Shown piece by piece: positions 3,558-64,000 of a stretch of 64,000 nt of DNA; the stretch's first letter is position 1, and each line of letters starts with the position of its first letter. The position numbers were made by a program, and so were the translations under genes. The stretch comes from an uncultured bacterium (lineage in GTDB: Bacteria > JACRDZ01): NCBI GenBank assembly GCA_964457585.1, contig CAYWFU010000007.1:5275-69274 (forward strand). Reading direction: 5' to 3'. Below the pieces are notes generated by a model. That model had not been told where the DNA came from and made no database searches. It worked only from the letters and a program-made list of their open reading frames with translations.

Positions 3558-3569
3558 TAGTGAATAAAT

Positions 3570-5461: not shown

Positions 5462-5490
5462 AATAAATTTTTTTTAAAGGAGCCTGATAA

Positions 5491-6111: not shown

Positions 6112-6138
6112 TTAAATTATAAGTATTGGAGATAAAAA

Positions 6139-7284: not shown

Positions 7285-7347
7285 CCCAAGTTAAAGTATT
7301 GTTATAATAAAAAATTATTAATATAGTAAAAAGAAAGATGAAAAGTT

Positions 7348-8292: not shown

Positions 8293-8296
8293 TATT

Positions 8297-8911: not shown

Positions 8912-8926
8912 GGAGTTAGTAAAAAA

Positions 8927-9715: not shown

Positions 9716-9717
9716 TT

Positions 9718-12130: not shown

Positions 12131-12142
12131 TTATAATAATTA

Positions 12143-12691: not shown

Positions 12692-12727
12692 TATATTATA
12701 TCAAATAATAAAAAAGGGGAAGAATAG

Positions 12728-16795: not shown

Positions 16796-16806
16796 AGGGG
16801 AAAATT

Positions 16807-18246: not shown

Positions 18247-18255
18247 AAGGACATC

Positions 18256-40987: not shown

Positions 40988-42430
40988 TTGAACATATTGT
41001 TCATATATTCATTGCAAGATGCGAGATCTTCTCAAAAACCTTTACAGAATCAAGGGCAGATGCAGTTTGGTATATCATATATATCAGCTTTTTTAAAAAA
41101 ACATCGACATAATACAAAATTACTTGTTTTAAACAGAGAAGCAAAAAAAGAAAAAATAGCAGCGGTAATTAGAGAATTTAAACCGAGGTTGATATGCTTT
41201 TCTACGGTAACAATTGAGTTTGAATTTATAACTCAAATTGCTAAAGATATTAAGAAAAATTTTCCTGATATTTTTTTGCTGATTGGAGGAGTTCATGTTT
41301 CTTTAAATCCTTCGGAAAAGATGCTTGAAGTTTTTGATGCATTATGTATCGGAGAAGGAGAGTATCCAACTTTTGAATTAATCGAACAATTAGAAAAAGG
41401 GTTTTTCCCTTCAAAAATTTTAAATCTTTGGATAAAAAATAAATCAGAAATAGAAAAAAATAAAACACGACCTTTTTACCAAAATTTGGATGAATTGCCT
41501 TTTCCTGATAGAGATATATGGATGGATTGGATACAAGAACCAACAACAGGGTATACTATTCTTCTTGGACGAGGGTGCCCTTTTATTTGTGCTTATTGTT
41601 CAAATCATGCTATAAGAAGATTAAGTGACGGAAAATATGTTAGACAGAGATCGTCTGAAAATATTATCGGTGAATTGAAAGAACTAACAGATAAGATTCC
41701 TTCCATAAAAAATATTTATCTTGAAGTTGAAACTTTTGGCGCAAATAAAAAGTGGGCTATTGATTTATGTGAAAAATTAAGAGATTTTAATAAAAACAAC
41801 AAAAAAGAAATTTTTTTTGGAACGAATTTACGAGTGACACCTAATAAAGATTATGATCAACTTTTTGCAGAGTTGAAAAAAAGCAATTTTACTTTTATTA
41901 ATATTGGGCTAGAATCCGGTAGTGAAAGAGTTCGGCGAGAAGTGCTGAAAAGAAATTATTCAAATGAAGATATTATTAAAGCTGTTTCATCCGGTAGAAA
42001 ACATGGATTGAAAATCAAATTTTTTAATTTAATTGGTATTCCTGGTGAAACTTATAATGATTTTATGGAAACCGTGAAAATGAATAGAATTTGTTTGCCT
42101 GACACGAATTATTTATCTATATTTTTCCCATATCCGGGAACCTCATTACATAAGTTATGTATAGAGCAAGGACTAATAACAAATAAACTTGATACTCAAA
42201 TGGAAAGAAGAAGGTCAACATTAAATTTACCTGACTTTAGTAAAAAACAGATTCAAACGTGTTTTGTATGGTTTGAATACTATGCGTTTAAAGGATGTAA
42301 GCCGATATATAAAATATTATCCAAAGTTATGGTGAATAAAATTCATTCTAATTATTATTTGAATTTATGTTATAGAAGGTTAACATCGTTAACTTTTTTT
42401 AAAATTTTGAAAAAAAGTTTACAATCATAA
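40988..42430 (+). CDS. B12-binding-domain radical SAM enzyme, paralogue 3
   Basis: LLIGGVHVS, GEGE B12-domain features; GRGCPFICAYCSNHA cluster motif; TTG start with AGGAG 8 nt upstream. Confidence 0.8.
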   Translation: MNILFIYSLQDARSSQKPLQNQGQMQFGISYISAFLKKHRHNTKLLVLNREAKKEKIAAVIREFKPRLICFSTVTIEFEFITQIAKDIKKNFPDIFLLIGGVHVSLNPSEKMLEVFDALCIGEGEYPTFELIEQLEKGFFPSKILNLWIKNKSEIEKNKTRPFYQNLDELPFPDRDIWMDWIQEPTTGYTILLGRGCPFICAYCSNHAIRRLSDGKYVRQRSSENIIGELKELTDKIPSIKNIYLEVETFGANKKWAIDLCEKLRDFNKNNKKEIFFGTNLRVTPNKDYDQLFAELKKSNFTFINIGLESGSERVRREVLKRNYSNEDIIKAVSSGRKHGLKIKFFNLIGIPGETYNDFMETVKMNRICLPDTNYLSIFFPYPGTSLHKLCIEQGLITNKLDTQMERRRSTLNLPDFSKKQIQTCFVWFEYYAFKGCKPIYKILSKVMVNKIHSNYYLNLCYRRLTSLTFFKILKKSLQS

Positions 42431-47427: not shown

Positions 47428-48921
47428 ATGAGAATTTTACTGATAGATCCTCCTACTAATTGTTTTACCGGGCTTATGAAAAGGGGCTATCCAATTGGAT
47501 TATGCATGCTTGCTGCTGTAGCTAAAAATGAAGGAATCCAGGATGTAAGTGTTTATGATGTAGATAAGTCTTTGCCTCCTACATATGGTCTGAATTTCAG
47601 CAATCAAAAACAAAATATGGCTCGTTTTCTCGATGGAGTAAATAATCTTGATCATCCTGTTTGGAAAAGCATAAGCCAAACACTTGATTCCTTTAAACCG
47701 GATATTGTTGGTATAACCACAATGACGATACAGTATGCTGCGGCAATGCGTGTTGCTCAAACAGTTAAATCATGGGACAAAAAGTGTCCTGTTATTGTGG
47801 GAGGCGCTCATACCAGCGTAATGCCCATCAGTACAATTGAATGGCCTTATATTGATATGATAGTCAAAGGAGAGGGAGAGGAAGCTTTTAGGCAAATTAT
47901 TCAAAGATTAAAAGATGGGCAGACAGATATGTCTGATATACATGGAGTTATAACCAAAAGTAATGCTTCTATGACAAATATACCGCCAATTGAAATTTCT
48001 GATTTAGATATTCTTCCTATCCCGGCAAGAGAAATGCTTATGCATAAAGAGCGCTATACTCCTGAAGATTTGGCATTGATTTTGACTTCACGCGGTTGCC
48101 CTTATCATTGCAGTTATTGCAGTAATTTTTCAAGAAAAACGCGTTTTAGATCAATCGAAAATGTAATTAATGAAATTGAGATTGTTAAGAATAAATATAA
48201 CGCTTCGCAATTTATGTTTAAGGATGATTCTTTTTCTTTAAGACGTAACCGAGTTGAAGAATTTTGTCGAAAACTTCATGAAAAGAAATTGGATATAAAT
48301 TGGGAGTGTACAACGCGTCTTGACTTGTTAGATGATAGTCTTGTTAAAATGATGATGTCCGCAGGGTGTAATCGTATAGGTGTAGGTGTTGAATCCGGCG
48401 ATGAACAAATGCTTCAAATCTATAGTAAGAGACTTACAAAGGATCAGATACGAAAAGGAGCAAAAATATTAAATGCCAATAAAATGTTTTGGACTGCTTA
48501 TTTTATGATGGGATTGCCAATGGAAAGTGAACAGCAGATTTATAGTACCATTGGTTTTATGAAAGAAATAAAACCTTCATATGCAGCAATAGGTATTTAT
48601 AAACCTTATCCTGGCACAAAACTTTTTGATATGGCTGCTGATCTGGGATTGGTAGATGCTAATGTGCCGAATGAACACTTTTTAAATACAAATCCAGTGG
48701 ACTATTTTTTCAAAGATGCAGGTAAAAGATGCGCTTATATCTCTCTAGACAAACTGACAGAATTAACCTGTTTTATGGAACAAGAATTTGAAAAGTATAA
48801 TAAAAAATTTTCAAAAATATTTAAACGAGCAATTTCAAGATATAAATTGTATTTATCTGACTATAAGAGCTTTACTACGGATATAAAAAGGATTATTAGA
48901 TGGTATATTCCTAAAACATAG
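47428..48921 (+). CDS. B12-binding-domain radical SAM enzyme, paralogue 4
   Basis: MRILLIDPP... (same N-terminus style as paralogue 1), VIVGGAHTS, GEGEE; SRGCPYHCSYCSN cluster motif. Confidence 0.8.
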   Translation: MRILLIDPPTNCFTGLMKRGYPIGLCMLAAVAKNEGIQDVSVYDVDKSLPPTYGLNFSNQKQNMARFLDGVNNLDHPVWKSISQTLDSFKPDIVGITTMTIQYAAAMRVAQTVKSWDKKCPVIVGGAHTSVMPISTIEWPYIDMIVKGEGEEAFRQIIQRLKDGQTDMSDIHGVITKSNASMTNIPPIEISDLDILPIPAREMLMHKERYTPEDLALILTSRGCPYHCSYCSNFSRKTRFRSIENVINEIEIVKNKYNASQFMFKDDSFSLRRNRVEEFCRKLHEKKLDINWECTTRLDLLDDSLVKMMMSAGCNRIGVGVESGDEQMLQIYSKRLTKDQIRKGAKILNANKMFWTAYFMMGLPMESEQQIYSTIGFMKEIKPSYAAIGIYKPYPGTKLFDMAADLGLVDANVPNEHFLNTNPVDYFFKDAGKRCAYISLDKLTELTCFMEQEFEKYNKKFSKIFKRAISRYKLYLSDYKSFTTDIKRIIRWYIPKT

Positions 48922-51323: not shown

Positions 51324-51911
51324 ATGTTTAATAAAGAAATAAATGTAAACCCGAATAATGCATTACCAATACATCGATTTACAATTGATGAATATTATCA
51401 TTTAGCTGAAGCAGGCATTTTACATGAGGATGATAATGTTGAGCTTATCGAAGGGAGGATAATTGACATGACACCTATTGGAAGTAAACATGCGTCATGT
51501 GTAAAGCGTATTATAGAATTATTAACTGATAGATTACAAAAAAGAGCAACTATTGGGGTACAAGATCCTATTGATTTAAATGAACAAACTGAGCCAGAAC
51601 CGGATATAACTATTTTAAAAAAACGTTCGGATTTTTATGCAGAACATCATCCTCGTCCTGAAGATGTATTGTTAATTATTGAAGTAGCAGACAGTTCTAT
51701 TAACTATGATCGTTCAATTAAAATTCCGCTTTATGCTAAAAGTGGAATTCAGGAAGTATGGTTAATAAATCTTATAGAAAATATTATTGAAGTATATCAA
51801 AATCCATCACAGATAGGATATAAAATTTGTAAAAAAGTATATAAAGAAGATACAATTTCACCATTATGTTTTTCTGATATTAATATAAAAGCATCGGAAA
51901 TAGTTGGATAA
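51324..51911 (+). CDS. Uma2-family (DUF820) putative endonuclease
   Basis: FTIDEYYHLAEAGIL....VELIEGRIIDMTPIGSKHASCV...DITIL...PDLVIEV-like layout of PD-(D/E)xK Uma2 proteins. Confidence 0.75.
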   Translation: MFNKEINVNPNNALPIHRFTIDEYYHLAEAGILHEDDNVELIEGRIIDMTPIGSKHASCVKRIIELLTDRLQKRATIGVQDPIDLNEQTEPEPDITILKKRSDFYAEHHPRPEDVLLIIEVADSSINYDRSIKIPLYAKSGIQEVWLINLIENIIEVYQNPSQIGYKICKKVYKEDTISPLCFSDINIKASEIVG

Positions 51912-52586: not shown

Positions 52587-53957
52587 ATGTTATTAAAACG
52601 TTTATCTAAAAAAATGGCTTTGGTTTTTTTAGGTGATATCTTTTTAATATTATTTGCTCAATATTTAAATGATCTACTATTTTTAAAATTTACTTCAAGA
52701 CCAATCCCCGCAAGTTTTGACATGTTATTTGTTACTGCAATTTTCTGCTTTATTTTTTATATTTTTGATTTACATGATCCAAATATAAGTTTTAAAGGTA
52801 CGCGTTTTTTTACTAAATTTTTAATTGCAATTCTAATTAGCAGCGGGATTGTCTCAATTAGTTTTTATTTTAGATTTTCATTAGAATATGGACGGATAAT
52901 ATTTCTTTCCAGTGTGATATTAATAGGATTTTTAACTTATACATGGCGTTTATTTTTGAATAAATATTTTAGAGAATTAACTCCTGAAAAAAAAATTATT
53001 ATTGTTGGTGCAGGACGTGCCGGATTAGCAATGTATAAAACATTAAAAGGGAGAAGATTTTATAAAGTAGTTGGTTTCCTTGATGATGACGAAGAAAAAA
53101 TTGGTAAAGTAATGGGCTCACCGCAAGTTATAGGAAATACTTATTTAATGAATGATATAATTAATAGTCGTAAAGCGGATATTTTAATCCTCGCAATTAC
53201 ACATCAAAAAAATCCTGAAATTTTTAAAATTATGCTTGACGCTAAAATGAAAGGTATTGATGTTTATGATATGCCGACATTCTATGAAATAGTTAATTGC
53301 GAAGTTCCTGTTGAGCATATCAAGGATTCGTGGTTTGTTTATACTGAGCTGTCAGGTGTAAAGGTTGGGATTTATAATCGTCATATTAAAAGGATTTTAG
53401 ATATTTTATTATCCTTTTTTCCTTTGATATTAACCTTGCCTGTTACAGTTGTAACCGCATTATTAATAAAATTGGATTCAGCAGGCCCAATATTTTATAT
53501 TCAGGAAAGAGTTGGATTAAATAATAAAATATTTAAGATAATAAAATTCCGTTCAATGAAAAAAAATGCGGAAACGAATGGGGCTGTTTGGGCACAAGAA
53601 AATGATTCCAGAGTAACAAATATTGGTAAAATAATCAGGAAATTGCGTATTGATGAAATACCGCAATGCTGGAATGTTTTAAAAGGTGATATGAGTTTTA
53701 TTGGTCCAAGACCTGAAAGATCAGAATTTATTGAACACCTGTCGAAAGAAATACCATATTATACCTTAAGGCATTATGTTCGTCCAGGGATTACTGGCTG
53801 GGCACAGGTAAATTATCATTACGGAGCATCAAAAGAAGATGCATTGAAAAAATTACAATACGATTTATATTATATAAAAAATTTGTCATTTGTTATAGAT
53901 TTACATATTTTATTAAAGACAGTCAAAGTAATATTATGGGGTAAAGGATCAAGGTAG
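52587..53957 (+). CDS. undecaprenyl-phosphate hexose-1-phosphate transferase (WbaP/bacterial sugar transferase family), initiating enzyme
   Basis: Four N-terminal TM helices plus Rossmann-like linker; C-terminal catalytic domain KIIKFRSM, IDEIPQCWNVLKGDMSFIGPRPE. Confidence 0.85.
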   Translation: MLLKRLSKKMALVFLGDIFLILFAQYLNDLLFLKFTSRPIPASFDMLFVTAIFCFIFYIFDLHDPNISFKGTRFFTKFLIAILISSGIVSISFYFRFSLEYGRIIFLSSVILIGFLTYTWRLFLNKYFRELTPEKKIIIVGAGRAGLAMYKTLKGRRFYKVVGFLDDDEEKIGKVMGSPQVIGNTYLMNDIINSRKADILILAITHQKNPEIFKIMLDAKMKGIDVYDMPTFYEIVNCEVPVEHIKDSWFVYTELSGVKVGIYNRHIKRILDILLSFFPLILTLPVTVVTALLIKLDSAGPIFYIQERVGLNNKIFKIIKFRSMKKNAETNGAVWAQENDSRVTNIGKIIRKLRIDEIPQCWNVLKGDMSFIGPRPERSEFIEHLSKEIPYYTLRHYVRPGITGWAQVNYHYGASKEDALKKLQYDLYYIKNLSFVIDLHILLKTVKVILWGKGSR

Positions 53958-53981
53958 AGACGCAAAATTTTGCGTCTCTAC
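53954..53981. terminator. bidirectional rho-independent terminator: hairpin gtagagacgc-aaaatttt-gcgtctctac followed by TTTTTATTTTT
   Basis: Overlaps the TAG stop of the 52587 gene and the stop of the convergent minus-strand gene (53978); T-run downstream. Confidence 0.8.
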
Positions 53982-54508
53982 TTTTTATTTTTAATATAAA
54001 AAGAAGATACTAAAAAATCCACATCTAAAAATGATGAATTCATTTCCTTTGGTCTAATATGAATTTGAGTTATTTTTATAGATTTATTTTTATGTTCAAT
54101 ATTATATAAAAAAGAGATTAAATTACTTAATTGAACTTCCTCAAGTTTGACTTCTATTGTATCCACCTTGTATGATTTATCCCCTTTTCCGCTTAATGGC
54201 CTCATTTGTGATATTTTTTCTTTAATTTGTGATTCAGAAGCCAATTTTTCTAAATAGGAGAAAATAGCAAAATCTTCTTGTTTTTCATTTAATTGTTCAT
54301 AAAGTTTTTTCTTTTTTAAAATAATATCAGAATATTCCGCTTTTAATTCCATAATTTTTAATAAGTCTTTCTCTTTATTATTTATTTGAATTTCCAGAGT
54401 ATGCAATTTATTATTTAATGGAGAAATAATAAATTGATAAAAAATATAAAAAACGATAAAGAAAGTACCAATAATAATATAGATTTTTTCACGCTTTTCT
54501 AAAGTCAT
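53978..54508 (-). CDS. membrane-anchored coiled-coil protein (PilO/GspM/FtsB-like topology), function unknown
   Basis: N-terminal TM IYIIIGTFFIVFYIFYQFII, then Lys/Glu-rich heptad region; GAGGA SD 4 nt upstream of ATG on minus strand. Confidence 0.45.
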   Translation of the reverse strand: MTLEKREKIYIIIGTFFIVFYIFYQFIISPLNNKLHTLEIQINNKEKDLLKIMELKAEYSDIILKKKKLYEQLNEKQEDFAIFSYLEKLASESQIKEKISQMRPLSGKGDKSYKVDTIEVKLEEVQLSNLISFLYNIEHKNKSIKITQIHIRPKEMNSSFLDVDFLVSSFYIKNKK

Positions 54509-54642: not shown

Positions 54643-55473
54643 TTGAAAAAAAAGAATGCTAAAAAGAAAATAACTAAAAAAGAAAACACATCTTTTGAAA
54701 AACTTGTTGATTTAATGCAAATTTTACGAGGTGAAAAAGGATGTCCATGGGACAAAGAACAAACTCATAAAAGTCTTAGAAATTGCCTGCTTGAAGAGGC
54801 ATACGAAGTTATTGAGACTCTGGATGAAGAAAATCCTGATAAATTAAAAGAAGAATTAGGAGATTTGCTTCTGCAGATACTTTTTCATTCTCAAATAGCG
54901 AAAGAAAATAAACATTTTACAATAGATGATGTTGTTAAAGCAATCATAGATAAAATTATACGCAGACATCCGCATGTGTTTTCCAATGTATCGCTCAAAA
55001 ATTCAAAAGAAGTTTTACTAAATTGGGAACAAATTAAATTAAAAGAAAAAAAAGATGCCGGGTATTCATCAATTTTGGATGGAATACCAAAATATATTCC
55101 ATCACTTTTAAAAGCGCATAGAATTCAAGATCGAGTTGCAAGAGTAGGGTTTGACTGGGAACATATAAGCGATGTATATAATAAAATAGATGAAGAACTT
55201 AAAGAATTTAAAGAAGCATATGAAAGAAAGGATCAGAAAGCTATTCTTGAAGAATTAGGAGATGTATTTTTTTCATTGGTAAATATAGCGCGTTTTTTAA
55301 ATACAAACCCTGAAGAAGCGCTGGAGAAAACAATCAGCAAATTTATAAAAAGATTTAAATATATAGAAAAGCATATCCATTCAAAGAAAAAATCATTTAC
55401 TGATTATGATCTTGTTGAACTTGAAAAATTATGGGAAGAATCGAAAAAAATTAAATCAAAGATAAAATCATAA
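54643..55473 (+). CDS. mazG: nucleoside triphosphate pyrophosphohydrolase MazG (tandem MazG domains)
   Basis: GCPWDKEQTHKSLRNCLLEEAYEVIE and EELGDLLLQI (first EExxE domain); second domain EELGDVFFSLVNIAR. Confidence 0.85.
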   Translation: MKKKNAKKKITKKENTSFEKLVDLMQILRGEKGCPWDKEQTHKSLRNCLLEEAYEVIETLDEENPDKLKEELGDLLLQILFHSQIAKENKHFTIDDVVKAIIDKIIRRHPHVFSNVSLKNSKEVLLNWEQIKLKEKKDAGYSSILDGIPKYIPSLLKAHRIQDRVARVGFDWEHISDVYNKIDEELKEFKEAYERKDQKAILEELGDVFFSLVNIARFLNTNPEEALEKTISKFIKRFKYIEKHIHSKKKSFTDYDLVELEKLWEESKKIKSKIKS

Positions 55474-55867
55474 TTCCAGCAACAGTATTTGATATAAAAT
55501 CATAATAATAAATTATTCCAGATATATTAGAAATATAACCGGCAATTAAAGATCCTATCCCAAAAATAATTAAAAAAATAGCTATCAAATAATGAAATTT
55601 TTTTGAAATAGTATTATTTACAATTTCTTTATAAAATAAAAAAAATATTATTCCAAATGCTGCAAAAATAATAAGAGAAGAGCGGTAGAAGTAAAAAAAG
55701 AATGGATTGTTTATCCAGCTTATTGGGAATTTTGTCCCGGTAATAAATATGAAAAAGTTGAATAAAGATATATCAGAAAAAAAAAGTAATATACCAAGAG
55801 AAGTATACTCTACAGCTTTAAATAAATATACAAATTGTAGTAGTCTATTTTTTATTGATAATTGCAT
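55451..55867 (-). CDS. small 4-TM membrane protein (uncertain)
   Basis: Hydrophobic ORF of 138 aa; its 3' end overlaps mazG by 23 nt on the opposite strand. No motif. Confidence 0.25.
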   Translation of the reverse strand: MQLSIKNRLLQFVYLFKAVEYTSLGILLFFSDISLFNFFIFITGTKFPISWINNPFFFYFYRSSLIIFAAFGIIFFLFYKEIVNNTISKKFHYLIAIFLIIFGIGSLIAGYISNISGIIYYYDFISNTVAGIMILSLI

Positions 55868-55944: not shown

Positions 55945-58900
55945 CTATTCTTTAATCTGAACAGGTATTTCTTTCCATGCGGAACCATTTCCCAGTTGTC
56001 CAAATCCATTATATCCCCAGCTCCAGACTGAACCATCTGATTTTAAAGCTAATGAATGATATGCTCCAGCAGAGATTGCTATCCAGTTATTATCATTATT
56101 AATCTGAATAGGGATATTTTTTCCTTCTATGGAATCATTCCCTAATTGTCCGTACCAGTTATATCCCCATGCCCATAATGTTCCATCTGATTTCAAAGCT
56201 AATGAATGTTCCCTGCCGGCAGAAATTGCTATCCAGTCATTATCAGCATTGATTTGAATAGGAGATGCATTATCTTCATTAGTATTGTCTCCAAGTTGAC
56301 CATAAAGATTTTTCCCCCATGCCCATAATGTTCCATCTGATTTCAAAGCCAATGTATAGTTACCTCCGGCAGAAATTGCTGTCCAATTATTATCGCCAAT
56401 TTGAACAGGAGAATTACTATCTTCATGATTATTTATACCTAACTGTCCAAATTCATTATTCCCCCATGCCCAGAGGGAGCTATCTGATTTTATTGCTATT
56501 GTATGATACTCTCCGGCAGAAATAATGCTCCATTTATTATCAATACCAACCATAACGGGTAAGTTTTTATTTACAAAAGATCCTTCGCCAAGTTGTCCGT
56601 AACTATTATTCCCCCATGCCCATAATGTTCCATCTGTTTTTATTGCTAATGAATGATACCATCCGGAAAAAGTTGATTCCCATTCATTAATTCCAGTCTT
56701 AATTGGAGTATCGCTGTTTTCATTTGTCCCATCACCTAATTGTCCGAATTCATTATCCCCCCATGCCCATAATGTTTTATCTGATTTTAATGCTAATATG
56801 TTATATACCCCTGTAGATATAGTTTGCCAGTCGCTTTCAGTATTAAATAATGTTAGATTATTTAAATTTTTTCCCGTATTATTCCCCATTTGCCCATATA
56901 AATTATTGCCGCTTACCCATAAAGTATTATCCATTTTTAATAAAATAGTATGATACCCGCCAGCATAAATTGCTTTCCAGTTATAATCAAAATTAATTAA
57001 ATTTGGTATATTTTTTGTTTTGTCAGCCATTTGTCCATATCTATTATCACCCCACGCCCAAAGTGATTTATCTGATTTTAATGCTATAGTATAATATCCG
57101 CCTGCATAAATTGATATCCAATTATTGTTATCATCAATTTTTGTTGGTATTTTTTTATTTATTGTCGAATTGTCGCCAAGTTGCCCAAATTCATTATTCC
57201 CCCAAGCCCAGATTGTGCCATCAGATTTTAACGCGACGGTATGATATATTCCGGCAGATATTACTATCCAATTGCTATCAGTACCAATTTGAACCGGACT
57301 ATTTTTATTTTCATTTGTACCAATCCCCAATTGCCCAAATTCATTATTCCCCCAAGCCCAGATTGTACTATCTGATTTCAAAGCAATAGAATGGTATTCT
57401 CCCAGTGAAACTGCTGCCCATTTTCCAGCAGCATTTACTTTTGCTGGTTTGTTTTTTTCTATATTTGTTCCATCTCCCAATTGTCCATATTCATTCGTTC
57501 CCCACATCCATAATGTATTATCCGATTTTATTGCAGCACTGTGTTTTTTCCCTGTAGAAATTGTTCTCCAATCCGGACTTGTACTTATTTTTGTTGGAAT
57601 ATTTCTATTTATTCGGGTCCCATCGCCTAATTGACTATATTGATTATTTCCCCATGCCCATAATGTACTATCAGATTTTATTGCTATTGTATGTGTTTCA
57701 CCGGCTGATATTTTTATCCATTTATCATTCCCAATTTGAACAGGTTCAAGACGGCTCATTTCCGAAACATTCCCTAATTGACCAAATTCATTATCCCCCC
57801 ATGCCCATAAAGTATTGTCAGATTTTATCACAATTGTATAAGCTTCACCTGCGGATATTTCTATCCAATCATATATGTTATCTAAAAGAGAAACTTTATT
57901 TATTTTTTCTGTGATATAACTATTTACCTGCCCGTCTTTATTGTATCCCCAGCCCCATAAAGAGCTGTCAGATTTTATAGCTAAAATATGATAATGACCA
58001 GCAGAAATTTTTTCCCATAAAATAAATCTTTCCGTATTAAATTTTATTGAATAATCTGTATTTAATGAATTTCCTGATAAATCTTTTATCCTGGTAGTAA
58101 TTGTAATCGTATATTTTGAACTATGTGTAAGTATTGTATCAGGAATGAATGTAATAGAAGTTTCATTTGAAATAATCGTACCGGAAATAACTGAATTATT
58201 AATGTCTTTAACAAAGAAAGTTGCTTTATTAATTGTTGATACCTCAATAGGTTCAGAAAAAAAAGCTTCAATTTTTGAATCAATAGCAATATTTATAGCA
58301 TTATTTTCCGGAGTTGTTGATATAACTTCAGGCGGTGTTGTATCCTTAATTCTGCCGGTATTAAATGTAAAAATATAAGCGGTTTTAAGATTGTTTTCTG
58401 ATAAATCTTTTATATCAGTGGTAATTGTAACAATATATTTTGAATCAGGAATAAGATCTTCATTTGATATAAAAGTAGCTGTTGTTCCGCTGTAAGTGAC
58501 TGTACCAATAGTGAGAGCATTATCAATATCTCTTTTTATCTGAAATGTCGCAGTTGTGATTGTGGATATATTAATTGATTCAGAAAAAGTAGCTGTGATT
58601 CGTGTATTAAAGGGTAAATTTGAATCCCCGCTTTCCGGAGTTGTTGATATAACTTCAGGCGGAGTTGTATCTGATATAGACCCTGTAGTAAATGACCATA
58701 CATAATCAGTTCCCATTTCATTGCCAGATAAATCTTTTACCTTTGCAGTGATTGCTGCTGTATATATAGTATCTGCTTCAAAATTCTCTTCTGGAATAAA
58801 TGTTAATGTTGTTCCATTATACATAATTATCCCGGCAACAGGATAATTATCAATATTTTTTATAATTTGGAATGTTTCTGAACTGATTGTTGAAATGTCC

Positions 58901-60120
58901 ATTGGTTCTGAAAATAGCGCAGAAATATTTGTACTGAACGATATATCAATAGCTTTATTTTCTGGACTTGTTTGTATGATTTGAGGTGGAATAGTATCAG
59001 TAATCAAACCTATTGTAAATGACCATTTATAGTTTTCTATTAATGTATTACCTGATAAATCTTTTATATTTTTTGAAATAATAGCAGTATATACTACACC
59101 GGGAATAAGGTCATTTTCAGGTATGAAAGTTATTGTTGTTCCATAATATTTAACTGTCCCTTTAATTGGAAGAAAATCAATATTACTAATAACCTGAAAT
59201 ACATCATTGGTAATTGTCGATACATCTATTTGTTCTGTAAAAATTGCTACAATGTTCGTGCTAATTGGTACATTAATAGCGTCTTTTTCAGGAGTTGTTA
59301 ATGTTATTTTGAGTGGTACGATATCAATATTTAAACCTGTTGTAAATGACCATGAATATGATTCTAAAAGTGAATTACCAGATAAATCTTTTATTTCCGT
59401 TGTAAGAGTTGCTGTATATTGTGTATTATAAGACATATTATTTTGGGGAATGAATGTCGCTGTATTTTCATTGTATATAATTTCTCCTGAAATAGTGGCG
59501 CTGCCTGATATATTTACTATTTTAAATGTTTCTGAATTAAGTGTTGTTTTATCTATTGGTTCAGAAAACATTACAGTAATTTTTGTGTTCAAAGGGACAT
59601 CAACTGTACCATTTAATGGGTTTGTTAATATAATTTGCGGAGGAATAAGATCAGGAATAGAAACAGCGCCGGTGGTAAATTTAAAAATATAATCAGATTT
59701 TAAATAATTTCCTGATTTATCTTTTATTTTTGAAGTTATTGTAACAGAATACTGTGTAGCAGGAGTTAATTCAGGATTTGATGCAAATTCAGCAATTGTA
59801 TTACTATATATAATTTCTCCCTGAACAAATGATGAATCTGATAAATTCATCACTTTAAATGTATCAGAAGTGATGGTTGTTGAATCAATTGATTCAGAAA
59901 ATGTTATAGTTATTTTAGTATTAATAGGTATATCTGTTGAATTATCTGCCGGGCTTGTTGCTATTATATAAGGAGCTGTGGTATCGAGTAAAGGTTTAAT
60001 TGAATCTGTGTGTTTTTTAGATTTGGATTTTCCAATGCATGAAAAAGCAAAAATAAAAAAAATAATAAATAGAATATTGATAATTTTATACAAAAATTTA
60101 AAATTATAATTTGGTATCAT
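55945..60120 (-). CDS. large secreted/surface protein: signal-anchor + 6 tandem SbsA-type Ig-like (Big_5) repeats + 14-blade RCC1-like beta-propeller
   Basis: N-terminal hydrophobic IINILFIIFFIFAFSCIG. Six ~108-aa repeats (T.PP.IISTTPEN.AINI....I.A.FSEPID.STI...TF.V.......GT..Y.GTT.TFIP...L.....YT.TIT..IKDLSGN.L...Y.W.FTTG). Then 14 repeats of LW[AG]WG.N.[FY]GQLG.G. Confidence 0.85.
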   Translation of the reverse strand: MIPNYNFKFLYKIINILFIIFFIFAFSCIGKSKSKKHTDSIKPLLDTTAPYIIATSPADNSTDIPINTKITITFSESIDSTTITSDTFKVMNLSDSSFVQGEIIYSNTIAEFASNPELTPATQYSVTITSKIKDKSGNYLKSDYIFKFTTGAVSIPDLIPPQIILTNPLNGTVDVPLNTKITVMFSEPIDKTTLNSETFKIVNISGSATISGEIIYNENTATFIPQNNMSYNTQYTATLTTEIKDLSGNSLLESYSWSFTTGLNIDIVPLKITLTTPEKDAINVPISTNIVAIFTEQIDVSTITNDVFQVISNIDFLPIKGTVKYYGTTITFIPENDLIPGVVYTAIISKNIKDLSGNTLIENYKWSFTIGLITDTIPPQIIQTSPENKAIDISFSTNISALFSEPMDISTISSETFQIIKNIDNYPVAGIIMYNGTTLTFIPEENFEADTIYTAAITAKVKDLSGNEMGTDYVWSFTTGSISDTTPPEVISTTPESGDSNLPFNTRITATFSESINISTITTATFQIKRDIDNALTIGTVTYSGTTATFISNEDLIPDSKYIVTITTDIKDLSENNLKTAYIFTFNTGRIKDTTPPEVISTTPENNAINIAIDSKIEAFFSEPIEVSTINKATFFVKDINNSVISGTIISNETSITFIPDTILTHSSKYTITITTRIKDLSGNSLNTDYSIKFNTERFILWEKISAGHYHILAIKSDSSLWGWGYNKDGQVNSYITEKINKVSLLDNIYDWIEISAGEAYTIVIKSDNTLWAWGDNEFGQLGNVSEMSRLEPVQIGNDKWIKISAGETHTIAIKSDSTLWAWGNNQYSQLGDGTRINRNIPTKISTSPDWRTISTGKKHSAAIKSDNTLWMWGTNEYGQLGDGTNIEKNKPAKVNAAGKWAAVSLGEYHSIALKSDSTIWAWGNNEFGQLGIGTNENKNSPVQIGTDSNWIVISAGIYHTVALKSDGTIWAWGNNEFGQLGDNSTINKKIPTKIDDNNNWISIYAGGYYTIALKSDKSLWAWGDNRYGQMADKTKNIPNLINFDYNWKAIYAGGYHTILLKMDNTLWVSGNNLYGQMGNNTGKNLNNLTLFNTESDWQTISTGVYNILALKSDKTLWAWGDNEFGQLGDGTNENSDTPIKTGINEWESTFSGWYHSLAIKTDGTLWAWGNNSYGQLGEGSFVNKNLPVMVGIDNKWSIISAGEYHTIAIKSDSSLWAWGNNEFGQLGINNHEDSNSPVQIGDNNWTAISAGGNYTLALKSDGTLWAWGKNLYGQLGDNTNEDNASPIQINADNDWIAISAGREHSLALKSDGTLWAWGYNWYGQLGNDSIEGKNIPIQINNDNNWIAISAGAYHSLALKSDGSVWSWGYNGFGQLGNGSAWKEIPVQIKE
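55948..58020. repeat. 14 ~150-bp degenerate tandem coding repeats (RCC1 blades)
   Basis: Recurrent ccatgcccataatgt / ccaagcccagattgt / attattcccccatgccca segments on the + strand every ~150 bp (the reverse complement of WAWGNNE...). Confidence 0.7.
58020..59985. repeat. six ~325-bp degenerate tandem coding repeats (Big_5/SbsA Ig-like modules) inside the 55945..60120 gene
   Basis: Protein-level periodicity mapped back to DNA. Generates a ladder of out-of-frame ORFs on the + strand (58145, 59207, 59450 ...). Confidence 0.7.
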
Positions 60121-60252
60121 ATATAAAATTATACGTTATTATTATGTATAACTCAAGTTAGGCTGCTTTCGGCATTTTTTGAGCAAATAGTAATTGACAT
60201 TTTTTTCAAATACTTTATACTTTCATAGTTCAATATTTTAGAGGATTAATAA

Positions 60253-61803
60253 ATGAGAAAATATCTTCAACACATTTTAGTTTTTGCTGGAATATTAATT
60301 TTTTTTGGATATATTCAATCTGTTGCAGAAAAGGTAGTATGCAACGATGTTTTTTTTCATATTAAATATAGTTTTCTTTTACGTAAAAATGGTCTAATCA
60401 GAGAACTTCCATGGCTGCAATATACAATAATGAAAGATGGCTGGGTTGATCATCATTTTTTATTTCATGTTTTTCTCATTCCTTTTACATTTTTTAGCAA
60501 TTTAATATGGGGTGCTAAATTTGCTGCAATTTTTTTTGCGAGCATAGCATGTTTTAGCTGTTATTTTTTAATGGTAAAATATCAAATAAAGTATTCAATA
60601 TTCTGGACCGCATGCCTTCTGGTCGGAAGCTGGTCATTTTTATTTCGCATGAATATGACCAGGGCGCAATCAATGGGCCTTACTTTTTTTATAATTTCAA
60701 TTGGTTTATTGTTAAGAAAGAAATATGCTGCGCTGGGAATTATATCATTCTTTTTTATGTGGCTTTATCAATTGTCAATTCTCTTGATTCCTATTGTTTT
60801 GATTGCGGTTATTATTGATTGGATACAGGGAAATAAATTTGACTATAAAATTTTATTGGTAACAATATCTGGACTTCTGTCCGGACTGATTATTAATCCA
60901 TATTTTCCGCAGAATGTTAAATTTTTTTATTTGCATGTATTTAAAACAGCATTAAATCTGGAACGGCTTAATGCAGGCGGTGAATGGCTGCCTTATGATT
61001 CATGGTTCCTTGTAATTACTAGTTTCCCTCCATTTGTATTATTTTTTACAACAATTTTTTTAGCTTTTATAAATAATCAAAAACTATCGCGTAGCACGGT
61101 AATTTTATTTACAATTACTATATTATTTTTTTTAATGTACACAAAATCGAAACGATTCATTGAATACTGGCCGCCATTTCCGATATTATTCAGCGCATTT
61201 GCTTTTAATGATTTTTTAGAAAATAATAGTTTTAAAGAAAAATTTGATTTCCTGAAAAAATTTATATATATTCCTTTAGGAATAATTTTAATTGTTTTAT
61301 TTATTATTAATATAAAAATAGCTCGTTCTGAAATCGATGGAGCGAATTATACTTATCGTTATCAAAAATCTGCCAGATGGCTTGAGCAAAATACTTCTGC
61401 AGGTGATATAATTTATACAACTGATTGGGATGATTTCCCTGAATTATTTTTTTTCAACTCAAAAAATTATTATATTGTTGGAATGGATCCTTCATGGATG
61501 TTTTATTATGATAAGAAACTTTATAAAGAATGGGATGATATTAATTTAGGAAGAGCCTGCGATCCGGATGTTATTTCAAAGAAATTTAAATCCAGATTTG
61601 TTTTTACTGATAATAAGCATGGCGGTTTTATAAATAATGCAATGACAAATGAAAGATTTAAACGGGTATATAGTGATGAGGAAGCATCGATTTTTGAAGT
61701 GCTCCCGCCTGATGTTAATAAAAATAAGAAAGCTTCAAAATTATCTAAAATGCCATTTAACATAAAAAATCTTATTCGGAGAAAATTTGGCGGCTTTTTA
61801 TGA
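60253..61803 (+). CDS. polytopic integral membrane protein, possible GT-C-fold (ArnT/PMT-like) glycosyltransferase
   Basis: About 11-13 TM helices with an early loop DGWVDHH and a large C-terminal soluble domain; topology like GT-C enzymes. No firm motif. Confidence 0.35.
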   Translation: MRKYLQHILVFAGILIFFGYIQSVAEKVVCNDVFFHIKYSFLLRKNGLIRELPWLQYTIMKDGWVDHHFLFHVFLIPFTFFSNLIWGAKFAAIFFASIACFSCYFLMVKYQIKYSIFWTACLLVGSWSFLFRMNMTRAQSMGLTFFIISIGLLLRKKYAALGIISFFFMWLYQLSILLIPIVLIAVIIDWIQGNKFDYKILLVTISGLLSGLIINPYFPQNVKFFYLHVFKTALNLERLNAGGEWLPYDSWFLVITSFPPFVLFFTTIFLAFINNQKLSRSTVILFTITILFFLMYTKSKRFIEYWPPFPILFSAFAFNDFLENNSFKEKFDFLKKFIYIPLGIILIVLFIINIKIARSEIDGANYTYRYQKSARWLEQNTSAGDIIYTTDWDDFPELFFFNSKNYYIVGMDPSWMFYYDKKLYKEWDDINLGRACDPDVISKKFKSRFVFTDNKHGGFINNAMTNERFKRVYSDEEASIFEVLPPDVNKNKKASKLSKMPFNIKNLIRRKFGGFL

Positions 61804-61928: not shown

Positions 61929-64000
61929 ATGATAAAAAAAACAGTAAATTTAAAATTAATTTTTCTTTTTGCAATATTTTTTTCTTTTATAGTTAATATT
62001 CACGCACAAAGTCTGGATGAAGATGAGCATTATCATATTGCGCTTAACGCTTTTACTGATCAATTATTTGATCTGGCATTAAATCAGTTTAATAAATTTA
62101 TTGAAAATTTTCCGGAAAGCAAAAAGATAGATAAAGCGCAATATTTAATAGCTGAATGTAATTATAAACTCGGAAAACTGGAAGATGCAATTATAAATTT
62201 TGAAAAACTGATAAATAAATATCCGCAGAGTGAATTCATTGAAGATGCTTATACTAGAATCGGAGAAGTATATTTCCTGCAAAAAAAATATGATAAAGTA
62301 ATTACGCAATATACTAATTTATTAATTTATAATCCCAGGAGTAAATACGCAGCTGATGCCCAGTACTGGATAGCCGAAGCATATTTTAACTTAAAGAATT
62401 ACAATAGAGCTATTCTGTATTATCAAAATATAATTACTAATTTTAATAAAAGCAAAAAGGTTCCATTTGCTTATTATTCAATTGGTTGGTGTTATTTTTT
62501 AGATAGTAAATTTGAAAATGCGATAAAAATGTTTCAGCAGGTTATAAAACAGTATTCCGAGATGCCTATAGTTGAATCATCCAGATATTATCTCGCAGAA
62601 TCATTTTTAAGAATTGGAGACAGCAATAATGCTATTATAGAGTTCAATCAATTTATTAAATCATATCCTGACAGTAAATTTATTGATAATGCATATTATT
62701 ATAGAAGTGAAGCATATTTCAGGCTTAAAGATTATACAAAAGCGCGCGAAGGGTATTATAATTTAAAAAATAAATTTCCTGACAGCCAGTGGTTTGATGA
62801 TGCGGCATATAATATTGGCCTTACTTATTATTATGAAAAAAATTATGATTTTGCGGTTGTAGAATTTTTAAATTTCACAAAAGAATTTCCAAAAAGCGAA
62901 TGGATTCAATATGCAGTTCAGAAAATCGCTCAGGTATATGAAGATACCAATAAATACGGAGATGCGGTAAAACGATATAACGAATTAATAAAAGGCAATA
63001 GCGAAAATGAAGTCAAAGATAATTTTTATTATGGAGTGGCATATGCTTATTTTAAATTAGGTTTATATGATTCCTCAATTAATGCCGCAAATAAAGTTGT
63101 TGCTGAATATAAAAATAGCAAATTGGTTTCGCCTTCTTTATATCTTGTGGGTGAAAATCTTTTTTCGCAAAAAAAATATATTGAAGCAATAAAAATTTAT
63201 GAAGAAGTTCTAAAGAGCAAAGCTCCATCAACTCTTGAAGCAGATGCTAAGTATAAAATAGCTCTCTCATATTTTTATTTAAAAGACTATAAAAAATCTT
63301 CTGAATTATTTGAAAATCTGCGTAAAATAAAAGAGTTTAAATCATATGATAAACTCGAATTCCTGATAGCTGAAAGCTATTATCAGCTTGGTCAGTATGA
63401 TATGGCTCTTGCAGTATATAAAAAAATAATTAAAGATTTTCCTGATAGTGAAATTATTAAAGAAGCTCAGTTTGGAGCAGCATGGGTGCATTTAAAAAAA
63501 GGCGATGATTTATTAGCGACACAAAATTTTGAAATTTTAGCAGAGAAATACAAGAATACCGATATTGGAAGTAAAGCAAATATTCAATTAGCAAAAATAT
63601 TTGCAGATAAGAAAAAATATAAGGAAGCAGTTAAATTTTATTCCAGTTTTGTAAAAAATTATCCTCAGCATCCTGAAGCCAGCGACATGCAATATCAGCT
63701 TGCCTGGTGTTATTATAATTTAGATAAATTTGCTGAAGCAAGAGCAGAGTTTAAAGTTTTGTTAAGCCAATATCCAAAAAGTTCCATAAAAGATAATGCG
63801 CAATATTGGCTTGCATGGTCATACTTTAGAGAAAATGATTTTAAAAATGCTATACAGGAATTTAAAAAAATAGAAATCGAGTATCTAAAAAGCAATTTGC
63901 TGATTGATTCGATTTTTCGTATAGGAGATGCATTTTATAATTTGCAGAATTATGATAAAGCAATAGAGAGCTATAGTGTTGTAATCAATAAATCTCCAGG
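61929..64000 (+). CDS. TPR-repeat protein with signal peptide (YbgF/BamD-like TPR_6 repeats), 3'-truncated by window edge
   Basis: Hand-translated frame open from ATG 61929 to the window end with no stop. N-terminal LIFLFAIFFSFIVNIHA signal. Many repeats of ...F..L...YP.S....A.Y.....Y... Confidence 0.8.
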   Translation, partial: MIKKTVNLKLIFLFAIFFSFIVNIHAQSLDEDEHYHIALNAFTDQLFDLALNQFNKFIENFPESKKIDKAQYLIAECNYKLGKLEDAIINFEKLINKYPQSEFIEDAYTRIGEVYFLQKKYDKVITQYTNLLIYNPRSKYAADAQYWIAEAYFNLKNYNRAILYYQNIITNFNKSKKVPFAYYSIGWCYFLDSKFENAIKMFQQVIKQYSEMPIVESSRYYLAESFLRIGDSNNAIIEFNQFIKSYPDSKFIDNAYYYRSEAYFRLKDYTKAREGYYNLKNKFPDSQWFDDAAYNIGLTYYYEKNYDFAVVEFLNFTKEFPKSEWIQYAVQKIAQVYEDTNKYGDAVKRYNELIKGNSENEVKDNFYYGVAYAYFKLGLYDSSINAANKVVAEYKNSKLVSPSLYLVGENLFSQKKYIEAIKIYEEVLKSKAPSTLEADAKYKIALSYFYLKDYKKSSELFENLRKIKEFKSYDKLEFLIAESYYQLGQYDMALAVYKKIIKDFPDSEIIKEAQFGAAWVHLKKGDDLLATQNFEILAEKYKNTDIGSKANIQLAKIFADKKKYKEAVKFYSSFVKNYPQHPEASDMQYQLAWCYYNLDKFAEARAEFKVLLSQYPKSSIKDNAQYWLAWSYFRENDFKNAIQEFKKIEIEYLKSNLLIDSIFRIGDAFYNLQNYDKAIESYSVVINKSP

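Follow-up and report, generated by a model that had tools for sequence, protein, structure and literature searches.

The gene and its domains

An ATG-started open reading frame, without an earlier in-frame start, occupies positions 55945–60120 on the minus strand of the window (the whole 64,000-nt stretch that was analyzed). It forms a complete coding sequence for a protein of 1391 amino acids, with its stop codon at 55945–55947, and the product is identical to an NCBI protein (P0001) on a 76.6-kb contig. Pfam searches returned Big_5 six times (E 7.3e-129), RCC1_2 14 times (6.2e-134), RCC1 12 times (5.6e-152) and WD40_RLD in four stretches (1.6e-220), all far over the gathering scores. The same search found no SLH, CWB2, T9SS or RTX module. 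The protein has no C-terminal sorting signal and ends directly after its last blade.

A consensus scan located a promoter-like site (TTGAGT-17-TATAAT; 60128–60156, minus strand) 8 nt upstream of the ATG, back-to-back with a plus-strand site of the divergent gene at 60194–60221. Note that these sites should be considered weak evidence, since their number in the region is not above shuffle expectation. On the other side, 77 nt downstream and on the same strand, lies an ORF for a hydrophobic protein of 138 amino acids (55451–55867). It has no match in Pfam, overlaps the 3′ end of the MazG gene by 23 nt, and is unrelated to the ORF that occupies the corresponding site in L027. Possibly it encodes a co-transcribed small membrane protein; otherwise it is spurious.

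N-terminus

A signal anchor had been proposed in the initial annotation. This was rejected because the h-region spans only ∼15 residues (13–27) and is followed by a lipobox (FAFSC) that holds the sole cysteine of the protein, Cys28. The N-terminus, which is also the only hydrophobic segment, is better read as a lipoprotein (SPase II) signal peptide (MIPNYNFKFLYKIINILFIIFFIFAFS followed by C; residues 1–28, positions 60037–60120, minus strand); the mature protein would begin with Cys28, which is predicted to be lipidated. The sequence fits the core of the PROSITE PS51257 pattern and fails its auxiliary rule (K/R within the first seven residues) by one, the first K/R being at position 8. A lipobox recurs in every full-length relative of the same architecture (seen in P0003, P0048, P0054 and P0116), and in 74 of the 110 Big_5-array matches with an intact N-terminus. 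Between the cysteine and the first Ig-like domain is a Lys/Ser-rich tether, IGKSKSKKHTDSIKPLLD (residues 29–46; 59983–60036, minus strand), read directly from the sequence; P0003 carries an analogous one, GGGSSKKKKQQSD.

Ig-like domains of the proposed stalk

Six tandem Big_5 (SbsA-type) Ig-like domains, as the initial annotation had proposed, were found both by Pfam and by a motif scan. They occupy residues 47–702 (58015–59982, minus strand) with a period of 109 amino acids (47–155, 158–266, 267–375, 376–484, 485–593 and 594–702), and pairwise identities are 53–65% at the nucleotide level and 34–52% at the amino acid level. The modules had also been described as Ser/Thr-rich. Their S+T content is indeed 26.3%, but this is generic for the domain: the median among 118 Big_5 proteins is 27.5% (5–95% range, 22.6–31.8%), and the protein ranks 83rd of the 118. 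Proteins with Big_5 arrays bear many different C-terminal heads, for example DUF3494, which together with the frequency of the lipobox among them indicates that Big_5 serves as a generic stalk.

RCC1 propellers

The motif scan placed 14 blades at residues 721–1365, spaced by 47–50 amino acids. Identity between blades is 53–73% for nucleotides and 33–71% for amino acids; blades 1, 7 and 8 diverge most, and the shortest spacing (47 amino acids) is that from 7 to 8. TRF found no long-period array, so the earlier description of the repeat DNA as degenerate holds for modules and blades alike.

An AF2 model of residues 690–1391 (mean pLDDT 87.7) contains 56 strands, or 14 times four, and its pLDDT dips at model residues 340–360 (protein residues 1029–1049). 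Foldseek matched the model to UVR8 with an E value of 7e-40 and an rmsd of 1.4 Å over ∼360 columns at 27% identity. The TM score of this superposition is 0.87–0.90 when normalized to the target and 0.48 when normalized to the query. UVR8 has seven blades and covers half of the model, which implies one seven-bladed propeller per half, and so two propellers, in agreement with the double seven-bladed propeller proposed at the outset. In the predicted fold, propeller 1 (blades 1–7) comprises residues ∼703–1045 (56986–58014, minus strand) and propeller 2 (blades 8–14) residues ∼1046–1391 (55948–56985, minus strand), their common boundary being approximate. Between the two halves, identity is 48%. 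HERC2, RPGR and RCC1 were also matched; BLIP-II was not among the top 50 Foldseek matches, which were eukaryotic UVR8, HERC2, RPGR and RCC1 proteins. These share the seven-bladed fold, but they are intracellular guanine nucleotide exchange factors (GEFs), photoreceptors or adaptors, whereas the propellers described here are in tandem and predicted to be extracytoplasmic. Nothing suggests a GEF or photoreceptor function.

Relatives and host

The best full-length relative, P0003 (MBI5207493.1, “Ig-like domain-containing protein”), comes from a Candidatus Firestonebacteria MAG (GCA_016212735.1) and is 47% identical over 96% of the query. It likewise has 14 blades, but differs in having seven Big_5 domains instead of six, a basic C-terminal tail and another genomic context (M48 peptidase, reverse transcriptase). 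Its propellers show 47–51% similarity to those of the 1391-residue protein, about equal in any pairing, which shows that the repeat consensus accounts for the resemblance; whether the two proteins are true orthologs is uncertain. Six relatives (P0003, P0009, P0048, P0054, P0116 and P0378) share a lipobox, a short low-complexity tether, 5–18 Big_5 domains and 7–28 RCC1 blades, with P0048 (five Big_5, seven blades) and P0378 (18 and 28) as the extremes. The genes that neighbor members of this architecture encode an M48 peptidase, CRISPR components or trpD.

An uncultivated, Firestonebacteria-like diderm is the probable host. The MazG protein of the window is 73% identical to one from the same Firestonebacteria assembly as P0003, and a Wzi-like gene, Wzz, a GspM-like gene and a YfiO/BamD-like TPR match are diderm indicators.

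Proposed function

We consider it somewhat probable that the protein is a lipid-anchored, exported, non-enzymatic binding protein, likely a surface adhesin or receptor. Following Sec export, lipoprotein processing would leave acylated Cys28 as the membrane anchor. The 18-residue tether and the six Big_5 domains would then make up a stalk some 25 nm long, which may hold the two RCC1/BLIP-II-type propellers off the membrane as a ligand-binding head. The protein most likely resides at the cell surface, where the propellers could capture a macromolecular ligand, such as a protein or glycan on other cells, particles or matrix. Neither a ligand nor a binding-site motif nor a conserved partner gene could be identified for the protein.

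Parts of this arrangement have precedents. The RCC1/BLIP-II group is mostly bacterial, and BLIP-II of Streptomyces is a secreted propeller whose sole activity is to bind protein tightly (PMC9218822). It too has seven short blades of ∼40–50 residues, but it is a single free propeller without a lipid anchor or an Ig stalk. In LdtMt2 of M. tuberculosis, a putative lipoprotein, a lipobox cysteine is likewise followed by tandem Big_5 domains that space a C-terminal functional domain from the membrane (PMC3605043), although it has two Big_5 domains, an L,D-transpeptidase head in place of a propeller, and a different envelope type.

These precedents also allow the protein to be read as a periplasm-facing binder, inhibitor or scaffold within the envelope, a fairly unlikely alternative. 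Most lipoproteins of diderms do face the periplasm, and a surface-export signal or partner (Slam, a T2SS operon, T9SS) was looked for and none was identified. Inhibition by an RCC1-type propeller is known from BLIP-II (PMC9218822), and the Big_5 spacers of LdtMt2 let that enzyme reach peptidoglycan (PMC3605043). Against this location, six extended Ig-like domains plus two propellers would approach or exceed the length of a typical periplasm, and a place on the cell surface is clear for those relatives that carry SLH anchors or InlB-type repeats. Long Ig-like arrays are, moreover, typical of surface adhesins.

Adjacent glycan locus

Every ORF of at least 120 amino acids in positions 1–53957 is on the plus strand, and most are glycan-synthesis genes. 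The last of them, a WbaP-like gene, ends at 53957, 1988 nt from the gene for the 1391-residue protein, which bears out the distance of 2 kb given earlier. The locus ends at a strong hairpin terminator (53951–53984, plus strand; 15-bp stem with six GC pairs, followed by a T-run) found by a terminator scan at the end of the WbaP-like gene. GspM-like and MazG genes then separate it from the convergently oriented gene studied here. The terminator, the intervening genes and the orientation argue that there is no operon link to the glycan locus.

The locus had been likened to S-layer glycosylation (slg) clusters, where nucleotide-sugar genes accompany a WbaP-like initiator, an ABC exporter and a Wzy_C-type transferase. 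The initiator, the exporter and a pseudaminic acid (Pse) pathway are present, PseB, C, G, H and I all scoring above NCBIfam cut-offs. The likeness itself was not supported: the exporter is of the fused MsbA/PglK type, not Wzm/Wzt, the Wzy_C match is under the Pfam gathering score, and the structural gene lies outside the locus. The additional Wzi-like and Wzz genes mark a diderm capsule or O-antigen locus, not a Gram-positive slg cluster.

The same annotation saw in the protein a plausible glycan acceptor or S-layer-like adhesin; on this reading, the Ser/Thr residues of Big_5 would be O-glycosylated with a Pse-containing glycan of the 54-kb locus that a Wzy_C-type or other oligosaccharyltransferase would transfer from undecaprenyl-PP. 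Besides the proximity of so large a locus, with its initiator, PglK/MsbA-like flippase and weak Wzy_C protein, seven D-[ST]-[AILVMT] sites, most of which fall on the borders between modules, are consistent with this. S-layer and further proteins of Tannerella carry an O-glycan that ends in Pse/Leg (PMC5420450, PMC6120980), and O-antigen synthesis machinery is shared by OTase-dependent O-glycosylation (PMC12871550). We nevertheless regard it as quite improbable, and found no specific support for it. Such a Ser/Thr content and “DTTPP” junctions are common to Big_5 arrays whatever the phylum, and linkage to a glycan locus was absent in three relatives; the most closely related assembly has both MazG and the Big_5-RCC1 gene away from any such locus. 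Although Big_5 is named after SbsA, the protein lacks the SLH or other S-layer anchoring module of SbsA/SgsE-type glycoproteins (Geobacillus, Paenibacillus) and would be attached by lipid, which is not the usual attachment of bacterial S-layers. That the gene lies next to the glycan locus is most likely a coincidence, a matter of proximity only.

Divergent glycosyltransferase

Across a 132-nt intergenic region, a divergent gene (60253–61803, plus strand) encodes a polytopic protein of 516 amino acids with more than 2000 homologs and no match in Pfam or NCBIfam. Its AF2 model (pLDDT 85.5, pTM 0.86) matched STT3 best in Foldseek (E 3e-10, TMq 0.68), then ALG12, PglB, AglB, DPY19 and ArnT. As modeled, it is a GT-C-fold glycosyltransferase of an unannotated family, closest to oligosaccharyltransferases; sequence-level similarity to solved GT-C structures was not detected. 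Within the family, D32 in the first loop is an invariant acidic residue, and a D-W-D-D-F-P motif ∼28 residues past the last transmembrane helix is invariant. One homolog sits in a type IV pilus gene cluster. The enzyme may possibly be a functional partner of the 1391-residue protein, tying it to glycosylation.

That the two form a dedicated pair, in which the enzyme would draw on a polyprenyl-phosphate-linked sugar to glycosylate the stalk or tether of the lipoprotein in the periplasm, much as TfpW acts on pilins and PMT/OST on their substrates, is very doubtful: the back-to-back promoter-like sites, the invariant acidic motifs, the resemblance to protein-modifying enzymes (STT3, PglB, AglB, DPY19) and the pilus-cluster homolog, which recalls the GT-C pilin glycosyltransferase TfpW (bioRxiv 10.1101/2020.04.19.049825), speak for it, but GT-C enzymes also act on lipids and glycans (ArnT, ALG and Emb are among the matches), family members are absent from 66 loci (775 kb) around RCC1 or Big_5-RCC1 relatives, and five other contexts of the family contain no Big_5 or RCC1 neighbor.

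A recurrent class of probable surface proteins

The preferred reading is a lipid-anchored surface adhesin or receptor. Other proteins, too, are predicted from sequence to bear RCC1 propellers as exported heads, attached by different anchors. One from Paenibacillus (sp. NPDC057934, locus L003) has a signal peptide, ∼13 blades in four RLD stretches (two propellers) and beta-sandwich spacers, and its RCC1 region is 41% identical to that described here. It differs in that its propellers are N-terminal, its spacers are Cadherin-like, and three C-terminal SLH domains attach it to a Gram-positive wall. A Syntrophomonadaceae protein combines a signal peptide, an RLD and eight InlB-B-type repeats, and extracellular giant proteins with RCC1 domains have been described (bioRxiv 10.1101/2023.11.21.568195). 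The 1391-residue protein belongs to a recurrent, so far uncharacterized class of probable surface proteins.

Gene and domain content

The gene for the 1391-aa protein lies at 55945-60120, the position given in the initial annotation, on the reverse strand, with an ATG start and 1391 codons; the ORF listing contains no in-frame start codon 5' of this ATG. An identical copy of the protein is already present in NCBI, encoded on a contig of 76.6 kb. Pfam searches returned Big_5 (PF13205) at 422 bits in six stretches (gathering cut-off 23.6 bits, E 7.3e-129), the best of which spans HMM positions 3-105 of 105, together with RCC1 (495 bits, 12 stretches), RCC1_2 (433 bits, 14 stretches) and the RCC1-like-domain model WD40_RLD (732 bits, E 1.6e-220, four stretches). 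The six Big_5 modules occupy residues 47-702 with a period of exactly 109 aa. A motif scan placed 14 regular RCC1 repeats, or blades, in residues 721-1365 at a spacing of 47-50 aa, and the chain stops directly after blade 14. Both repeat counts had been proposed initially, and both are recovered by Pfam and the motif scan. No NCBIfam model matches the protein. Matches to CopC and PASTA in the first Ig module were discarded as cross-matches, as no stretch passes on its own.

Pairwise identities are 34-52% (amino acids) and 53-65% (nucleotides) among the Big_5 modules, and 33-71% and 53-73%, respectively, among the blades. Tandem Repeats Finder detected no long-period array. This blank result and the nucleotide identities of 53-73% rule out recent repeat amplification, in agreement with an earlier description of the repeats as degenerate and not recently amplified; by this comparison, the repeats are old. 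Note that the RCC1-coding part (window 56001-58000) has a GC fraction of 0.349, versus 0.291 for the Big_5 part and ∼0.30 for the window on average. This difference stems more probably from the abundance of Gly, Ala and Trp in the blades than from a foreign source. Derivation from a phage or mobile element was likewise rejected; no such genes are nearby except a lone Uma2 nuclease gene in the glycan locus.

Structure of the RCC1 region

A structure prediction, suggested in the initial annotation for the proposed double seven-bladed propeller, was made with AlphaFold2 for residues 690-1391 using a small alignment of relatives. The model (mean pLDDT 87.7, pTM 0.61) contains 56 strands, or four per blade, and its confidence drops at the N-terminus and around protein residues 1029-1049. 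The best Foldseek match in the PDB is the seven-bladed UVR8 (E 7e-40, rmsd 1.4 Å over ∼360 columns), followed by the RCC1-like domains of HERC2, RPGR and RCC1. Superposition on UVR8 gave TM scores of 0.87-0.90 relative to UVR8 and 0.48 relative to the query, so that half of the query fits one closed seven-bladed propeller almost perfectly. Because half of the query is matched in this way, 14 equals two times seven, the spacing between blades 7 and 8 is short (47 aa), and divergence is greatest in blades 1, 7 and 8, the model supports two tandem seven-bladed propellers rather than one large ring. A single 14-bladed ring is opposed by the query TM score of 0.48 at an rmsd of 1.4 Å, by the pLDDT dip at the blade 7/8 junction and by the same divergent blades.

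N-terminus

The N-terminus had been described as a signal anchor. Residues 1-28 are MIPNYNFKFLYKIINILFIIFFIFAFSC, in which the hydrophobic core is only ∼15 residues long and ends F-A-F-S-C; no second hydrophobic segment is found in the protein, and Cys28 is its sole cysteine. For lipobox detection we used the core PROSITE pattern {DERK}(6)-[LIVMFWSTAG](2)-[LIVMFYSTAGCQ]-[AGS]-C, with the Cys at position 15-35, and the stretch FIIFFIFAFSC ending at Cys28 fits it. The auxiliary PROSITE rule (K or R within the first seven residues) is missed narrowly, with Lys at position 8 and then 12, and the n-region is still charged. An 18-residue Lys/Ser-rich tether directly follows Cys28, and P0003, a relative from Candidatus Firestonebacteria (MBI5207493.1), has an analogous GGGSSKKKK tether.

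All full-length relatives of this architecture carry a lipobox (LSVSC in P0003, VAAC in P0048, LVSC in P0054 and LAAGC in P0116), as do 74 of the 110 Big_5-array proteins that have an intact N-terminus. The signal anchor was rejected because the h-region is too short and the lipobox is conserved in relatives. Given the short core, the lipobox with its sole cysteine and the lipoboxes of relatives, the protein is best read as a putative lipoprotein.

Relatives

The Big_5 half of the protein matches hundreds of proteins from many phyla, each with 2-18 Big_5 domains (median 9). The modules that follow these arrays vary widely (DUF3494, other Ig types and so on), and Big_5 thus behaves as a generic stalk. 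Its combination with RCC1 recurs only rarely, in P0003, P0009, P0047, P0048, P0053, P0054 and P0116. P0003 is 47% identical over 96% of the query and has seven Big_5 modules and 14 blades; P0048 (931 aa) has five Big_5 modules and a single propeller of seven blades; and in P0053 (Desantisbacteria, 876 aa, partial) the Big_5 and RCC1 blocks are interleaved. The two propellers of the query are 47-51% identical to those of P0003 whatever the pairing, and 48% identical to each other. Since all pairings give equal identity, the likeness reflects the repeat consensus and not position-by-position orthology.

RCC1 relatives are very numerous: with residues 594-1391 as the query, an exhaustive HMMER search matched 207,701 representative clusters at E ≤ 1e-3, of which 65,575 reach E ≤ 1e-30. 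Giant proteins with several propellers make up the top 149 clusters (median, 36 blade motifs), and only one of these, P0378 (3274 aa, 18 Big_5 domains, 28 blades, lipobox), carries a Big_5 stalk. Among P0378, P0053 and P0048 the two modules are freely shuffled. Evidently, both the number of propellers and the length of the stalk can evolve. Exported proteins that are anchored differently may likewise bear RCC1 propellers as heads: one from Paenibacillus combines a signal peptide and ∼13 blades with two Cadherin-like and three SLH domains, and RCC1 proteins of Syntrophomonadaceae carry InlB-B-type repeats.

Scans of genome collections and metagenomes (JGI) found relatives in the RCC1 region only and no close kin, and literature searches found no paper on Big_5-RCC1 proteins. 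Public databases already contain both domain families, their fusion and the lipobox, under no more specific annotation than “Ig-like domain-containing protein”. The anatomy of the protein holds nothing unexpected, and the class is functionally uncharacterised.

Host and proposed organization

The best matches of the MazG protein of the window, each at 73% identity, are a Firestonebacteria protein of GCA_016212735.1, the assembly that also encodes P0003, and one Poribacteria-labelled protein; remaining matches are at 61% or lower. We infer a Firestonebacteria-like host with a GC content of about 30%. A diderm envelope is suggested by a Wzi-like gene (cut by the window start), Wzz, a GspM-like gene and the YfiO/BamD-like match of a TPR protein. 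The last is encoded at 61929-64000 on the forward strand, with its C-terminus beyond the window end; it has at least 690 aa, a signal peptide and little other than TPR repeats. Its assignment as a Slam-type surface-lipoprotein exporter was rejected, as the TPR_Slam match is a weak cross-match amid much stronger generic TPR matches.

The best-supported reading of the 1391-aa protein is a lipid-anchored Ig stalk with a propeller binding head, for which we infer surface exposure, a ligand and lipidation alike. The protein would be exported by Sec and then processed as a lipoprotein, with acylated Cys28 serving as the membrane anchor. The tether and six Ig-like domains would form a stalk of ∼25 nm, and two RCC1/BLIP-II-type propellers at its tip would be the binding head. 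BLIP-II, a secreted RCC1-type binder, is a near functional analogy (PMC9218822), and LdtMt2 is a putative lipoprotein with Big_5 spacers ahead of a functional domain (PMC3605043). Surface adhesins built on long Ig arrays offer another parallel. The same lipid-anchored chain could instead face the periplasm as a binder or scaffold, which we consider unlikely, although it fares best among the alternatives.

Relationship to the glycan locus

In the initial annotation, the protein was proposed as a glycan acceptor or S-layer-like protein, owing to its Ser/Thr-rich Big_5 modules and a nearby ∼54-kb locus (window 1-53957) likened to S-layer glycosylation (slg) clusters. Every ORF of at least 120 aa in this locus is on the forward strand, and the majority are glycan genes. 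PseB, PseC, PseG, PseH and PseI all exceed their NCBIfam equivalog cut-offs, and the pseudaminic-acid pathway is thus well supported. Between them, the pseudaminic-acid module and a second nonulosonic set take up 2541-13780 and 15965-19844 (forward strand). The second NeuB-like synthase reaches neither the NeuB nor the PseI cut-off; it is accompanied by an aminotransferase, a TIM-barrel protein and a CMP-transferase (cytidylyltransferase) of its own, so the locus may make two different nonulosonic acids.

The locus also encodes many GT1, GT2 and GT4 enzymes. Four B12-binding radical-SAM enzymes (25607-26995, 28352-30166, 40988-42430 and 47428-48921) and a SPASM radical-SAM enzyme (7348-8292), all on the forward strand, suggest C-methylation or other radical modification of sugars; the number of radical-SAM genes is unusually high. 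A HisH-like glutamine amidotransferase and a HisF-like cyclase are paired inside the Pse module (8297-9715, forward strand). Such a pair typifies the amidotransferase systems by which sugars receive acetamidino groups. The Uma2-family putative restriction endonuclease gene (51324-51911, forward strand) lies between the UDP-GlcNAc 2-epimerase and SIS (GmhA-like) genes.

The components that prompted the slg comparison are real. The last gene of the locus (52587-53957) encodes a WbaP-like initiator (Bac_transf, E 9e-70), and an ABC exporter and nucleotide-sugar genes are present, as is ORF 20646-21899, whose Wzy_C score of 30.8 bits is under the 31.7-bit cut-off and which has no NCBIfam match. 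Given Wzz, this ORF could as well be an O-antigen polymerase or ligase as a WsaB-like O-oligosaccharyltransferase. However, these components are common to any undecaprenyl-PP-linked pathway, and the Wzi-like and Wzz genes found in the locus are hallmarks of a diderm capsule or O-antigen. Gram-positive slg clusters use a Wzm/Wzt (ABC-2) exporter, whereas the exporter here is a fused TMD-NBD protein of the MsbA/PglK type, with approximately equal PglK and MsbA scores that are both far under cut-off. The locus accordingly departs from the slg pattern of a Wzm/Wzt exporter without diderm O-antigen or capsule components.

Five lines of evidence reduce the tie between the protein and the locus to proximity. 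First, the locus ends at a strong hairpin terminator with a 15-bp stem (53951-53984). This hairpin is common to the WbaP-like gene and a convergent, lone GspM/T2SS-M-like gene (53978-54508, reverse strand), and is potentially bidirectional; no other secretion or pilus genes are near the GspM-like gene. Second, the gene for the 1391-aa protein lies beyond the terminator in an orientation convergent to the locus, separated from it by the GspM-like gene (reverse), MazG (forward) and a 138-aa ORF. This very hydrophobic ORF (55451-55867, reverse strand) lies 77 nt downstream of the gene and shares 23 nt with the 3' end of MazG. Pfam does not match it, it does not resemble the equivalently placed ORF in the Firestonebacteria locus compared with the window (L027), and it may be a small membrane protein or spurious.

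Third, synteny was tested in more distant relatives only, and in three relatives of the same architecture the gene shows no linkage to a glycan cluster. The neighbours are an M48 peptidase and a reverse transcriptase for P0003, huge surface proteins and a CRISPR locus for P0116, and trpD for P0054. Fourth, the nearest related assembly shows no such linkage either, and its MazG neighbourhood is free of glycan loci and of Big_5-RCC1 genes. Fifth, the Big_5 modules are indeed Ser/Thr-rich (26.3%) but this is ordinary for the domain, with a median of 27.5% over 118 Big_5 proteins, among which the query ranks 83rd. Likewise, Big_5 arrays of all phyla contain the D-T-T-P-P junctions that fit the O-glycosylation motif of Bacteroidota. 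In addition, Pfam detected no S-layer anchoring or secretion module (SLH, CWB2, T9SS CTD or RTX/T1SS signal) in the protein. These results remove the specific support for glycosylation and do not disprove it; we regard a glycoprotein or S-layer protein as improbable. Ser/Thr-rich Big_5 modules next to a glycan locus do not, by themselves, predict a glycoprotein.

The divergent GT-C neighbour

Divergent from the gene across a 132-nt spacer is a gene for a 516-aa polytopic membrane protein (60253-61803, forward strand) that has over 2000 homologs, 480-530 aa in length, and no Pfam or NCBIfam match. Its AlphaFold model (30-sequence alignment; pLDDT 85.5, pTM 0.86) has a predicted GT-C fold with a C-terminal extracytoplasmic domain. 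The top 11 Foldseek matches in the PDB are eukaryotic STT3 subunits (E 3e-10 to 2e-8, query TM score 0.62-0.68), followed by ALG12, PglB, AglB, DPY19 and ArnT. From these matches, the modelled protein is a GT-C-fold glycosyltransferase, predicted to use a lipid-linked donor at the outer face of the cytoplasmic membrane.

Invariant positions in the family are D32 (first loop), H36, D66-H67-H68 (a D-H-H triad), H72 and D391-W-D-D-F-P396. Neither a WWD[YW]G motif nor STT3 (PF02516) sequence homology was found; the family has the invariant D-W-D-D-F-P motif instead, ∼28 residues past the last long helix, a placement that may resemble the position of WWDYG in oligosaccharyltransferases (OSTs). A profile search found no solved PDB protein with sequence similarity to the family.

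Elsewhere, family members adjoin a CHRD protein, ECF-sigma and DUF5667/5666 genes (two Chloroflexi) and a sugar epimerase. One lies inside a type IV pilus cluster (L030), which recalls TfpW, a pilin-modifying GT-C enzyme (bioRxiv 10.1101/2020.04.19.049825). An HMM search of 66 loci (775 kb) around RCC1 or Big_5-RCC1 relatives found no member of the family. Genomic context does not tie the enzyme to the 1391-aa protein. That the divergent genes encode a dedicated enzyme/acceptor pair is improbable, slightly more so than the glycoprotein proposal. Least probable of all is a full protein-glycosylation module of a candidate phylum, in which a minimal, highly divergent OTase relative with an STT3-like fold and DWDDFP replacing WWDYG would glycosylate the Thr/Ser-rich stalk from a lipid carrier, possibly with a Pse-containing glycan of the adjacent 54-kb locus. 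If true, this would define a new bacterial OTase family of more than 2000 members with a first candidate substrate.

Implications

The 1391-aa protein adds one example to a recurrent, uncharacterised bacterial envelope class with Ig-like stalks that present RCC1-type propellers. We know of no environmental RCC1 surface protein with a known ligand, and for this reason a tractable protein of 1391 aa whose domains are cleanly laid out could be of use in finding ligands. More useful is a by-product of the analysis, the GT-C family, which is unmodelled in Pfam and NCBIfam and whose predicted fold is nearest to oligosaccharyltransferases. If its members modify proteins, the known repertoire of bacterial protein glycosylation would widen.
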